A program made the position numbers and the translations under genes. Positions 2,217 to 52,078 of a stretch of DNA of 64,000 nucleotides are shown one piece after another. Source of the DNA: Eledone cirrhosa (taxonomy: Eukaryota). The DNA lies in the NCBI GenBank assembly GCA_964016885.1, contig OZ024740.1, forward strand, positions 242,854,001 through 242,918,000. Reading direction: 5' to 3'. Below the pieces are notes generated by a model. That model saw only the letters and a program-made list of their open reading frames with translations, did no database searches and was not told the DNA's origin. The stretch's first letter is position 1, and every line of letters starts with the position of its first letter.

Positions 2217-2344
2217 TATTGACTTGAATTTTTCATTTTTTCCTCTCTTTACGTTGCCTCACCATTCTTGTCTGTTTACTTGTCTTTCTCTTCTCACCCA
2301 ACTCTCTTTTTATCCCAATAACTTATTTTAGTTATTGTATCGCC

Positions 2345-2409
2345 CTAGGCTGAGGTATATTGTCTGTAATGCGAAGAAATACCCATGATGCCTAGTAGAC
2401 AACTGATGA
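2345..2409 (+). ncRNA. Candidate non-circularly permuted hammerhead ribozyme, copy 1
   Basis: CUAGGC-uga-GGUAU-A-UUGUCU-10nt-GAA-AUACC-6nt-GCCUAG-u-AGACAA-CUGAUGA; same 65-nt layout as the copies at 50289 and 51204, with compensatory changes. Confidence 0.55.
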
Positions 2410-2442
2410 TGGATATTCCTAACTTCTATTTCTAATTATATA

Positions 2443-25967: not shown

Positions 25968-26274
25968 GCGCGGGGACATAAAAATAATCGGGCTGGATAT
26001 CCGATCGTGCAGTTAAACCACTGGGAGTGAAGAACCCCTAGCCCTTTTCAGGGCATTCTTCTAAGAGAAGGCATCTCAGGAAACTGGGTTAACTCCGACA
26101 TAAAACCTGCGGCTCAGTAGTTACCGATGATGTTGATCTTTTCTTCTTTTCAGGTTATAGCTACTGTCGCTCAGAGAGTGGGATTGGCTCAGTGCACAGT
26201 CTTTCCTCACTTTAAAAATATTCGTCACGCACAGGCATTGCACGAGTGCATTAATAATTATTAATAGTGTACTA

Positions 26275-26305
<31 letters not shown>

Positions 26306-26310
26306 TATTA

Positions 26311-26341
<31 letters not shown>

Positions 26342-29300
26342 CCAATTCAATGATGTTCCAGAACAATATAAAAGAGATAATTGGCAATTTAGGTTCTGGA
26401 ACAAAAAAGATCATTGGCAATAAGGGCAGGGGCCCCAGGTTATCACAGCCTGGGCCCGCTCGTCATCATGCCATTGTAATAGAGCCAAACAAGGCATTTA
26501 GTCTTGGCTGCTGGAACGTACGGATGCTTCTTGACAGGGATTCCTTGGAGCGTCGTGAACGAAGGACCGCTCTTGTTGCAAAGGAGCTTCGACGTTACGA
26601 TCTTGACATCGTGGCTTTATCTGAGACGAGGTTAGCTGGAGATGGTCATCTTACGGAATTTTGTGGAGAATATACATTCTTCTGGAAAGGAAGAGATGAA
26701 GGAACCAGAAGAGAGGCTGGGGTAGGATTTGCTGTTAAGACTGTACTTGTGAACAAATTAGAAGAATTCCCAGTAGGGATTAGTGAGCGTCTTATGTCCA
26801 TGAGATTTCCGCTGGACAAGGGAAGATATGCTACCCTGGTGAGTGTGTATGCTCCAACTATGAGTTCTGTCGATGAGGAAAAGGTGTCCTTTTACCATGC
26901 CTTGAAAGGTGTTTTAAGAAATATCCCTCAGGCAGACAAAGTCATCGTGCTTGGTGACTTTAATGCTAGAGTGGGTAGGGATTTTAACACATGGAATGTA
27001 ATCGGAAGGCATGGGGTGGGAAAGTGTAACAGCAATGGTATGCTCCTGCTGCAGATGTGTGAGGAGCTGGATCTGTGTGTTACCAACACCATGTTCCAAC
27101 AAAAGAACAAATTCAAGACCACATGGATGCATCCTGCATCTAAGGAATGGCATCTTTTGGACTACGTCCTAGTCAGGATGCGTGACAGACAGGATGTGCA
27201 GTGTGTTCGTGTTCTTCATCGAGCTGAGTGCTGGACGGACCACCGCCTGGTACGCGCAAAAGTGAAACTAATCACTAAACGTAAAATCCAGGCTCCTGGT
27301 GTTGCCCTGCCCAAAAGATTGAATGCTGCTCGTCTTAAGGATAAAAATGTGAAGAGGACATTGGAAGAAGAGATGCAGGCTGCAGATCTTGGTGAGGATT
27401 GGCCAACCCTTAAAAAGTCGGTTTATGATGTAGGCAGGCGTGTTCTGGGATTGGCGCAGAGGAAACATCAGGACTGGTTTAATGAGAATGATGTACATAT
27501 AGAAGACTTGTTGGCTGATAAGAAGCGTGCTCTGTCATGCTACTTGACGGCAAAACCACAGGAGAGGAATACGTTGCATGAGGAACTCAGGGATGTAAAA
27601 TCACGTGTTAGGCGGAGTCTTTCTCAGATGAAGGATCAGATGAAGGTGGAGTGAGAAGGCTGGTGAGAAACAAACTGCGTCTGATTCCAATAACACAAAG
27701 CTGTTGTACAGTCTCTTGCGTGAGGTTTATGGACCGTCTTCTTCTCTGGTGACACCGCTTCGCAGCAGGGATGGCAAAGAACTTCTTCGTGACTCACAAG
27801 GAATTCTACGAAGGTGGCGAGAGCACTTTGATGATCTTTTGAATCAGCCGTCTGTCGTCAGTGAAGATTTCCTCAATCTCATTCCAGAAAGTCCTGTGAA
27901 AGTAGCTCTCGCAGAACCTCCGACGCTTGTGGAGGTTGCAGTGGCTATTTCGAAGCTGAACAGTGGAAGATCTCCAGGTATGGATGGCATACATGCTGAG
28001 CTCCTACAATATGGTGGTGAGAGACTCCTGCAACATCTGCACTTTTTGTTTGGAAGGATATGGGCTAATGAATCCGTACCTGAGGACTGGAGAGATGCAG
28101 TAATGGTGGTCTTGTACAAGGGAAAGGGTAACAGGAATGATTGTGGGAACTACAGAGGTATATCATTGCTTTCTGTCGTAGGGAAAGTTTTATGTAGGGT
28201 GCTTCTGGACCGTCTGCTGACACACATTGCAGATTGTGTTCTTCCTGAAAGTCAATCTGGTTTTCGTGCTGGACGCGGCACTACTGATATGATCTTCTCA
28301 GCTAGACAGCTCCAGGAGAAGTGCATTGAACAAGGCTTGGATCTGTATCAGGTTTTTGTCGATCTGACAAAGGCTTTCGATACTGTCAACAGAGATGCAT
28401 TATGGAAGGTTCTCCAGAAACTTGGTTGTCCTGATAAGTTCCTTGCTTATAAGTTAGGTCTTTCCATGACGACATGAAGGCTTGGGTTAATGTCGGAGGT
28501 AACATGTCGGAGCCTATCTCAGTAAAAAATGTAGTGAAACAGGGGGATATTCCAGCACCGACCCTGTTTGCCATATACTTTGCAATGCTTTTCTGTATTG
28601 CATTCAGGAATTGCGAGCATGGTGTTTACATCCGATATCGAACCTCAGGCAGCATATTTAACATCAGGCGCTTTGCTGCGAAGACAATGGTATTTACATC
28701 AATCATAAGAGACCTCTTGTATGCAGATGATTGCGATCTTGTAGCGCACACAGAGAGTGATATGCAGCACATTTTGAATGCATTTTCTGACGCTTGCACT
28801 GCCCTGGGTTTGACTGTCAGTCTCAAGAAAACCGTCGTCATGTACCAACCTGCCCCTAGTAAGCAGTACATTGAACCAAACATCTATGTGTATGGCAAAC
28901 GACTTGGAGTGGTTGATCAGTTTGTCTACCTGGGAAGCACTGTCAATCGATACGGCAACCTTGACGGTGAAATCTCACTTAGGATTAGGAAAGCAAGTGA
29001 TGCTTTCAGAAAGCTAGAAAGGCGACTCTGGGGTCGGCGAGACATATGTAGGAGGACAAAGGTAAAGGTGTACAGGGCATGTGTACTCTCTTGTCTTCTT
29101 TATGCCTGCGAGACCTGGGTCACATATCGACACCACCTTAAGCAATTGGAGCGTTTCCATCAGATGTGTCTCAGACGGATCCATGGCGTTCACTGGAGGG
29201 ACCACATCAGTGATGTCGAGATTTTGGAAAGCTCTATGTGTGACAGTATAGAAGCTCTTGTGCTTAAGCAACGACTCCGTTGAAGTGGTCACCTTGCCAG

Positions 29301-49884: not shown

Positions 49885-49908
49885 GAGACTCTATATATAT
49901 ATATATAG

Positions 49909-50178
49909 AGGAGACTGAGGTGGTATGAACATGTGATGCGCATGGAGGATGACCGATGGGTGAAGAAGTGCCAGGAAATGCCAGTTGAAGGAAGACGTGG
50001 TAGAGGTAGACCACGAAAAACATGGGCAGAGGTGGTGAGAACAGACCTCAGATCATTGAAGCTCATGGTGGAGATGACAAGAGACCGTGACGAGTGGAGA
50101 GATGCTGTGCTGAATAAGACCCGTCCCACCCTTGCAAGCAGGGAAAAGCGGACGTATGATGATGATGATGATGATGAT
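49909..50178 (+). mobile_element. RTE 3' fragment
   Basis: ORF 49933 (WVKKCQEM, GRPRKTW); tail. Confidence 0.9.
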
Positions 50179-50288
50179 ATATACAGAGAGAGGGAGAGAA
50201 TAGGATGGCTGTGTAGTTGCTAGTAAAGTTAAGCTTAAAAACGGAATGAGAATAAGAAGAAAGCAAGAACAGGATGGGGGAGGTTTCC

Positions 50289-50353
50289 TCATCAGTTGTC
50301 TACTGGAGGTCTTGGATATTTCAACGCTTTAAAGACAATATATCTACTCCCAG
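50289..50353 (-). ncRNA. Candidate non-circularly permuted hammerhead, copy 2
   Basis: CUGGGAG-ua-GAUAU-A-UUGUCU-10nt-GAA-AUAUC-5nt-CCUCCAG-u-AGACAA-CUGAUGA. Confidence 0.55.
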
Positions 50354-51203
50354 AGCGTTCAATAACCATGTAGGTTATTGGGAAAACAGAGGAGGGAGAG
50401 AAGGAAAAAAAGGGAAAAGGGGAAAAGGGAAGAAAAGGGAAACAGCAAAAAAGAAAACAAACCAAAGAATGTGCAGCAACTGAAGACAAGAGAGTCCAAG
50501 ACCACAGCGGTAACAGAACATAAGTTCAAGAGCATGTGATCGAACAAAAGAAGACGCGACTGACCCAAGCGAGTGTAAGTGAGAAAAAGACTGCTAGGGA
50601 AACAATGAGGTGGCAGGCAGAGAGAGGGTGAGTGAAAGTGAGAGGGAGAAAGGGAGAGGAAGAAAGAGTAGATAGTAACGAAACAGGTTGGTAGAGGGAG
50701 GGAGAAGACAGGTCACAGCAAAACATGATAAAATATATGGAGAATAGGGTGGTTGTGTAGTTGCTAGTAAAGTTAAGGTTAAAAATGAAGTGAGAATAAG
50801 AAGAAAGCAAGAAGGAAGGAGGGGGGGTTCCTCATCAGTTGTCTACTGGGGGTCTCATTTCATTACTATCTAGTCTTCCCCCTCTTTCTTCCTCTCCCTT
50901 TCTCCCTCTCACTTTCACTCACCCTCTCTCTGCCTGCCACCTCATTGTTTCCCTCACCTGACCTTCTAGCAGTCTTTTTCTCACTTACACTCGCTTGGGT
51001 CAGTCGCGTCTTTTTTTGTTCGATCACACGCTCTTGAACTTATGTTCTGTTACCGCTGTGGTCTTGGATTCTCTTGTCTTCAGTTGCTGCACATTCTTCG
51101 GTTTGTTGTTTTTTTCGCTGTTTCCCTTTTCTTCACTTTTCCCTTCTATTTTCCTTCTCTCCCTCCTCTGTATTCCCAATAACTTACCCAGTTATTGAAT
51201 GCT

Positions 51204-51268
51204 CTGGGGGTAGATATATTGTCTTTAAAGCATTGAAATATCCGACACCCCCAGTAGACAACTGATGA
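51204..51268 (+). ncRNA. Candidate non-circularly permuted hammerhead, copy 3
   Basis: CUGGGGG-ua-GAUAU-A-UUGUCU-10nt-GAA-AUAUC-5nt-CCCCCAG-u-AGACAA-CUGAUGA. Confidence 0.55.
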
Positions 51269-51324
51269 GGAAACCCCCTCTCCCAAATTCTTGCTTTCTT
51301 CCTATTCTCATTCCAATATTTAAG

Positions 51325-51369
<45 letters not shown>

Positions 51370-51373
<4 letters not shown>

Positions 51374-52011: not shown

Positions 52012-52078
52012 AATTCTTACTGCCTGATGAGGTCACAGCCAATAATGGCTGTCACTGAAATATCTATAGCAGCGAATT
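52012..52078 (+). ncRNA. Minimal type I hammerhead motif at the end of a (TA)n-adjacent segment (51624-52115)
   Basis: AAUUC..CUGC-CUGAUGA-GGUcACAGCC(AAUAAU)GGCUGUcACU-GAAA-UAUCUA-UA-GCAG.GAAUU. Confidence 0.72.

Follow-up and report, generated by a model that had tools for sequence, protein, structure and literature searches.

The window analyzed here is a stretch of 64,000 nucleotides from Eledone cirrhosa. The locus at 50196-51328 is a single insertion of a non-coding repeat, ~545 nt per unit, whose anatomy is Penelope-like. It is a head-to-head pair. On the minus strand, a copy of 1.2 units (50856-50196) starts with a partial unit truncated at its 5' end (50856-50740), continues with one complete unit of ~545 nt and is closed by a 34-nt tail (50230-50196) that is missing from its inverted partner. 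This partner, a 5'-truncated copy on the plus strand (50858-51328), is an inverted copy of 50683-50230 with 87% identity; within the minus-strand copy, 50740-50855 is a direct copy of 50196-50312 (89% identity). A (TA)n tract at 51327-51371 forms the end of the plus-strand copy, and the unit has no open frame of at least 250 aa. TA targets, partial tandems, inverted 5'-truncated copies and an optional 30- to 40-bp tail are the features described in the literature for Penelope-like elements. The window insertion shows a (TA)n flank, a partial tandem, an inverted 5'-truncated copy and the 34-nt tail. The very high-copy 3' end of a LINE-like element (49900-50178) directly adjoins the repeat, and LINE-like endonuclease/RT open frames lie at 26161-29280 (plus strand), 9479-6923 and 44060-43101 (both minus strand).

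The repeat carries the conserved strands of a hammerhead ribozyme. AGACAACUGAUGA is present at 51256-51268 (plus), 50301-50289 (minus) and 50844-50832 (minus), the last two lying 543 nt apart, and the strand with the predicted cleavage site is found at 51213-51224 (plus) and 50344-50333 (minus). The earlier note had reported these motif positions and the 543-nt spacing, together with a 10-nt stretch between stem I and GAAA and a 1-nt link between the outer stem and AGACAA; all were confirmed. The module that we call copy 2 is complete (50283-50387, minus) and contains six helices, termed X, Y, Z, P, III and I. Its upstream part comprises the 5' strand of X (50387-50381), hairpin Y (50380-50360) and the 5' strands of Z (50359-50354) and P (50353-50347). 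Stem III (50344-50340), the predicted cut after 50339 and stem I (50338-50333) follow, then the 3' strand of Z (50328-50323), GAAA (50322-50319) and the 3' strand of P (50309-50303). The second strand of stem I (50301-50296), CUGAUGA (50295-50289) and the 3' strand of X (from 50288) close the module. Copy 3 (51170-51274, plus) is also complete, with Y at 51177-51197, the 5' strands of Z and P at 51198-51203 and 51204-51210, stem III at 51213-51217, the predicted cut after 51218 and stem I at 51219-51224. Z3 (51229-51234), GAAA (51235-51238), P3 (51248-51254), the second stem I strand (51256-51261), CUGAUGA (51262-51268) and X3 (from 51269) complete it. Compared with copy 2, copy 3 shows compensatory changes in Z and P.

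Copy 1 (50826-50856, minus), which contributes the isolated CUGAUGA strand, is truncated: the inversion junction cuts it at +27 from the site, leaving only P3, the 5' strand of stem I, CUGAUGA and a degenerate X3. A fourth copy, absent from the earlier note along with helices X, Y and Z, is a solo module at 2307-2419 (plus; predicted cut after 2359). It belongs to a diverged subfamily (~75% identical) and has the architecture of copies 2 and 3 with compensatory changes and a k-turn of the box C/D type; BLAST similarity between the two window subfamilies is limited to the motif (72-77%). The asymmetric loop between stem III and P spans 51211-51247 in copy 3 (51211-51212 facing 51243-51247). It is intact in copy 2 and in the fourth copy (2351-2388) but not in copy 3, where C replaces G at k-turn position 1b (51246). 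In the fourth copy, the loop carries box C/D-type k-turn letters with a U.U pair and is a candidate site for a eukaryotic k-turn-binding protein.

All elements of the hammerhead core (CUGANGA, GAAA and an NUH site) are present. As the earlier note had proposed, their order is permuted: the strands run 5' to 3' as site, GAAA and CUGAUGA, the non-circular order of type SGC (Eckert et al. 2023). Core invariance in our alignments is partly built in by the search patterns, although the cleavage site was left unspecified both in the pattern that found the L123/L124 family and in the wider genome pattern (see below). The site base was A, C or U in 74 matches to our structure descriptor, which shuts out G. 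The three further helices extend the motif ~35 nt upstream. The strand before GAAA pairs with an upstream strand to form helix Z (median duplex energy, -5.2 kcal/mol), the strand after CUGAUGA pairs further upstream to form helix X (median, -5.1), and hairpin Y lies between the X and Z strands; X, Y, Z and the core thus form a four-way junction. The earlier note had read the 10-nt linker as a bare bridge, a reading at odds with the pairing of six of its bases with the upstream strand in Z.

In a canonical hammerhead, the strand that follows A9 pairs with the one preceding G12 to give stem II. This stem is absent here: only 0 to 2 contiguous pairs can form in 71 of 71 distinct matches (median, -0.3 kcal/mol), and helix Z stands in its place. 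Without Z, the stem II position offers at most two G-U pairs. Because the 71 matches had been selected for having Z, independent support for this helix comes from covariation and from the stem-blind tests described below. Nor does a stem II of a single pair at 10.1/11.1 hold generally, as these positions can pair in 46 of the 71 matches and are mismatched in 25. Z is tied to stem I by a linker of 3 to 5 nt in 58/71 matches, and the links joining the far ends of Z, stem I and P are mostly 0 to 2 nt long. In the k-turn consensus, a bulge of 3 nt precedes a G.A pair, and A.G or A.U comes next. The stem III/P loop, which we take to be k-turn-like by this consensus, has a 3-nt bulge followed by G.A (1b.1n) in 60/71 matches, and the next pair is A.G in 37 and A.U in 20.

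Covariation was assessed in two alignments; shuffle counts overstate significance where the aligned sequences are related, as the tool itself warns. In the first, 31 copies chosen by us across subfamilies, 93.8% of 943 cells were paired and 18 of 31 pairs showed compensatory changes; none of 500 shuffles scored as high, and slid registers gave 33 to 46%. Stem I was 100% paired (compensatory in 3/6 pairs) and stem III 96.8% paired (2/5), while compensatory changes affected five of the six pairs of Z and six of the seven pairs of P, which covaries strongly. The second alignment included X and combined 20 pattern-found copies with the 3 window copies, one row (L347) being without the upstream helices and shown there as gaps. 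Here 96.2% of cells were paired and every helix had at least one compensatory pair; 16/500 shuffles reached the pair count and 334/500 the count of pair types. In the stem-blind test, 22 of 28 matches from the animal's own genome to a pattern of core and k-turn letters satisfied the descriptor (site, I, III, Z and P), and 21 of them also had X and Y; of 118 metagenome matches to the same pattern (4 of 64 parts scanned), none fitted. L123/L124, an unrelated-looking family in the same genome, has different letters, the same architecture, a perfect four-way junction with 0-nt junction linkers, and a plain 3-nt bulge in place of the k-turn. The structure descriptor matched three times in the window, compared with one weaker match in 20 dinucleotide shuffles (1.28 Mb), and not at all in 197 reversed loci. 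The six helices I, III, P, X, Y and Z are thus complementary and covarying, and we consider it very likely that the motif is a conserved hammerhead-type structure. Rfam at gathering thresholds returned no match in the whole window; the split of CUGAUGA from its stem II strand would explain why Rfam and standard descriptors miss the motif. At 52017-52075 (plus), 700 nt from the permuted motif, lies a conventional minimal type I hammerhead whose stem II is long and stem III tiny; other Penelope-like elements are known to carry hammerheads of this kind.

The permuted motif is not a chance occurrence and belongs to a large repeat family. In the 3.0-Gb genome, the family pattern had 1,050 exact matches compared with 0 for the reversed control, and a wider pattern, in which only GAAA, CUGAUGA, five letters of the k-turn and the spacing between them were set, had 10,801 compared with 3; window copies 2 and 3 belong to a subfamily outside the reach of the latter. 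Among 88 loci, a single full motif was present in 68 and an inverted pair in 13; the other 7 had full motifs in tandem on the same strand, spaced 557 to 644 nt apart with one at 329. Of the first 100 wider-pattern matches listed, 27 fell by eye count into same-strand groups 445 to 637 nt apart. The tandems of two full motifs and the ~545-nt unit bear out the earlier suggestion of a retrozyme-like non-coding retroelement. Further families (L127, L128, L133, L136 and L140, in addition to L123 and L124) keep the permuted layout with different stems; in all seven, bulges or insertions replace the k-turn, and L133 is a three-copy array. An inverted family (L121/L122) was set aside as a canonical type I element.

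We then turned to the Naiads, Penelope-like elements that prefer (TA)n and that, in Craig et al. (2021, PMC8557442), are reported without canonical hammerheads. According to that study, some carry a half-core with GAAA 35 to 50 nt away, flagged as 'HHR_core' or 'HHR_half_core' without a structure. We read by eye the last ~420 nt of the 47 Naiad consensi in its File S1. The SGC order with stems I, III, Z and P was seen in 11/47 3' ends: Bfor (a name inferred from table order), Chem-3, Amil, Aacu, Anas, Movir-2, Plae, EuTe, Obim, Ovul and Esco. Among these, X and Y could be discerned everywhere but in Plae; Movir-2 has them in loose form, and Esco has weak Y and Z helices. By the same reading, the letters differ from those of the window family in every stem, and the ends of Naiad_Obim and Naiad_Ovul have the six helices, the spacing and the C/D-type k-turn of the window family. 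Stem III/P lengths vary independently among Naiads (5/8, 6/8, 10/5 and 12/10 bp), and several Naiads have long straight stems without a k-turn. Six nematode ends (Nbra-1, -2, -3, Hcon, Hpol and Asuum) read by eye as type CSG: stem II is canonical, and a further helix connects stems I and II on their free sides. The published type CSG had been based on two metagenome sequences. The remaining 30 of the 47 ends could not be parsed within the ~420-nt stretch. Those of bivalves, hemichordates and some hydrozoans showed no CUGANGA there by eye and have a different conserved motif in common; in spider and ostracod ends, CUGAYGA follows a run of C.

The earlier note had suggested looking for an autonomous Penelope-like element carrying the repeat, and none with the motif was found in this genome. 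The motif was present in none of the 30 best GIY-YIG loci, and the endonuclease was C-terminal in the 28 that were translated. RT fragments near two loci (L019 and L067) were rejected as partners, as TA tracts intervene and the fragments look like nested insertions. A motif search based on the published end of the octopus Naiad returned 11 sites, and the architecture was present at none of them; a Naiad-like remnant family (70 to 79% identity) had no motif downstream in 30 loci or 9 extensions. Such remnants are too decayed here to show a 3' end shared with an element of N-terminal GIY-YIG and RT. One decayed Naiad-like element (L157; G000:C2:153410000-153417300, minus) has an N-terminal endonuclease region, is interrupted by a LINE and has about 40 relatives at 68 to 89% identity. 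Because only decayed Naiad-like remnants without the motif were found in this genome, the Naiad partner of the ~545-nt repeat is inferred. The repeat is likely a non-autonomous passenger of Naiad-type Penelope-like retrotransposons, and we regard the Naiad link as probable. The permuted layout would account for the apparent lack of a hammerhead reported for Naiads.

The ends of the insertions bear on whether cut RNA served as template. Repeat 3' ends fall into two classes ~35 to 40 nt apart (14 and 26 of 50 alignments). In 30 copies spanning a unit junction, breakpoints are scattered from +102 to -179 relative to the site, with 19 at +8 to +102, 4 at -4 to -8 and 7 further upstream. At 22 TA-abutting loci counted by eye, where TA microhomology is a confounder, 15 breaks lie at +9 to +16, 4 at -1 to +1 and 3 upstream. 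Since TA microhomology shapes the junctions, the breakpoints do not clearly mark ribozyme-cut templates, and the 7/30 partial tandems that run more than 10 nt upstream of the site indicate that uncut templates were copied too. AUAUAU, matching the (TA)n target, is found just past the insertion 3' end in two subfamilies (window 50740-50735, minus; L041:1138-1143) and possibly reflects priming by microhomology with this target; an anole Penelope-like element is described as starting insertion without homology.

The lack of a clean signature of cut templates would also fit a motif that cuts rarely or no longer and serves as a folded recognition element for a Naiad protein near reverse-transcription start sites. 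The missing canonical stem II agrees with such a role, as does the anole element (Poseidon), for which hammerhead cleavage was dispensable for insertion in vitro. We nevertheless find this explanation quite improbable: although every stem changes, the core letters and the NUH site are kept in a family found stem-blind and, by eye, also in Naiads from ctenophores to cephalopods.

We instead favor a model in which the motif is an active ribozyme. The 3' part of the repeat would form a hammerhead core in the order site-GAAA-CUGAUGA, with stem II replaced by the four-way junction. Since Z abuts G12 and 3 to 5 nt tie it to stem I, Z would take the place of stem II; X and Y would stack off to the side, and the link from A9 to 10.1 would therefore be broken. 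A lone unit would rest as a rod of stem III and P, one end of which would carry the site/GAAA loop and the opposite end the Z5 and CUGAUGA strands. Tandem or multimeric transcripts would hold two such rods in antiparallel orientation, each loop taking up the Z5 and CUGAUGA strands of the other unit. The swapped pair would cut both sites and release unit-length RNA, which, perhaps circularized, would be copied into (TA)n by the Naiad RT/endonuclease. In RNAfold predictions, the III+P rod is the minimum-energy fold of four of five modules, the exception being copy 2.

The case for a swapped pair is largely geometrical. In the hammerhead, stems II and III are coaxially stacked and stem I lies beside stem II. 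Because the far ends of Z, I and P meet, P would have to return from below the core to above it within a single molecule. In a back-of-envelope estimate of the Z-to-P link only, using approximate helix parameters, the reach in the subfamily of copies 2 and 3 is 6.5 A compared with a best-case gap of 15 to 23 A, so that 2 or 3 P pairs must open, and in L124 the best-case gap is 48 to 60 A; the 2307-2419 subfamily closes as a monomer at 40 to 50 degrees with no pair opened. For copies 2 and 3, this rough geometry lends support to the doubt, voiced in the earlier note, that one unit can close on itself. Antiparallel modules close by symmetry at any stem length, a property that favors the swapped dimer and fits the varied stem III/P lengths of Naiads. 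In the model, such variation is tolerated by a symmetric dimer but would not be by a monomer loop. Penelope-like elements and amphibian retrozymes offer known examples of dimer-gated hammerheads. Counting against the dimer, most copies are solo (68/88 loci), the k-turn is conserved, as a fold-back monomer would want, and the window locus has one full module per strand and would therefore need a partner in trans. On balance, we put efficient cutting only when two complete modules swap halves at about even chances.

The same observations can be read in favor of folding within one unit, with the k-turn folding P back and end pairs fraying or, in a variant, with P opening altogether once the lock is released by an L7Ae-family k-turn binder or the element's own protein. 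Besides the prevalence of solo copies, the k-turn letters are kept across subfamilies (60/71) and in the octopus Naiads, the 2307-2419 subfamily closes geometrically, and a monomer with P fully open is feasible by our estimate of contour length. Other type-SGC hammerheads cleave in cis, some with links seemingly too short for the crystal structure. In contrast, the plain 3-nt bulge and 0-nt links of L123/L124 would require 5 or 6 of 10 P pairs to open, several Naiads have, by eye, long straight stems and no k-turn, and P shows strong covariation (6/7 pairs). We had at first read the k-turn as enabling monomer closure in every family; the geometry and the families lacking a k-turn weakened that view. 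Taken together, the two single-unit variants appear rather unlikely.

The earlier note had already placed the assembly across repeat units, and exchange between neighbors is retained in the swapped-dimer model. It had envisaged the CUGAUGA strand alone coming from the neighbor, the 10-nt linker unpaired, and 50832-50844 as the partner of copy 2. Such a strand does exist 543 nt upstream on the same strand, and 6 other loci of the 88 have an upstream partial unit starting between site and CUGAUGA. However, the linker pairs as helix Z with compensatory changes (5/6 pairs), without which only the two G-U pairs noted above could form at stem II, and a swap of CUGAUGA only would leave the 0-nt Z-to-P link unrelieved; two complete modules would be needed. 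The isolated strand ends at the inversion junction (50856), one of the 30 scattered breakpoints (+27), and carries no partner for Z, and the minus strand lacks two complete modules. We therefore consider the exchange in that exact form very improbable.

We regard the motif as a real, conserved and apparently undescribed hammerhead variant, for which both cleavage and the dimer step are predicted. The literature covered by our searches contained no description of permuted hammerheads in Naiads or animal genomes. In its most extended form, our proposal is that Naiads across animal phyla carry non-circularly permuted hammerheads, the main form of which would lie outside the six published permutations, with A9-to-10.1 broken and stem II supplied by a fourth strand in a four-way junction, and would act as an obligate dimer with swapped domains, counting tandem copies and releasing RNA of unit length. 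As a joint claim, we hold this tentatively, at somewhat less than even chances. The half-cores noted by Craig et al. gain a specific, testable structure. Non-circularly permuted hammerheads, so far found in anonymous environmental contigs, would gain a place in animal genomes, this one alone holding over 10,000 pattern matches, and the assumed inseparability of CUGAUGA and its stem II strand would be broken. If true, a ribozyme needing two complete copies would be a natural copy-number sensor.

Among known systems, type-SGC hammerheads (Eckert et al. 2023, PMC10085705) share the block order, the core letters and the short stem I linker with the window motif. That study knows the SGC and CSG forms only from metatranscriptome and metagenome data, in no genome of a known organism, and assumes that CUGAnGA is inseparable from its stem II strand. 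Both types have a canonical stem II there, and the CSG search pattern demands CUGAUGAG...CGAAA pairing. In the window motif, by contrast, CUGAUGA runs into X, Z replaces stem II as part of a four-way junction, P follows stem III beyond a kink and connects stem I with Z, and the motif sits in an animal genome. With regard to membership in type SGC, the order and the short stem I-to-II linker (3 to 5 nt in 58/71 matches) agree, whereas an intact block C and a helix that bridges stems I and II on their free sides are missing. The element has (TA)n targets, partial tandems, an inverted 5'-truncated copy and the 30- to 40-bp tail in common with Naiads as PMC8557442 describes them, and this anatomy is also common to other Penelope-like clades. 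It differs from Naiads in having no open frame of at least 250 aa, and no intact autonomous partner was found in the genome.

Non-LTR retrozymes (Cervera & de la Pena 2020, PMC7229834; Li et al. 2026, bioRxiv 10.64898/2026.07.22.740005) are likewise short non-coding tandem units. They have one hammerhead per unit, derive from Penelope-like elements and measure ~170 to 400 nt (PMC7229834) or 51 to 972 bp (10.64898/2026.07.22.740005), and amphibian representatives show better cleavage when dimeric. Type I hammerheads define the class, whereas the window motif has the SGC order and no Rfam match; circular RNAs have been shown for these retrozymes. The closest precedent for copy-dependent action is provided by the minimal type I hammerheads of Penelope-like elements (Cervera & de la Pena 2014, PMC4209133), in which a lone copy is off and a tandem assembles. 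Those dimers repair a stem III that is too short, whereas stem III is long in the window motif and the predicted exchange concerns the strands of stems I and II. Judged from its sequence, the window element appears to work like a hammerhead-bearing retrozyme that lies outside both type SGC and the non-LTR retrozymes as these are defined.
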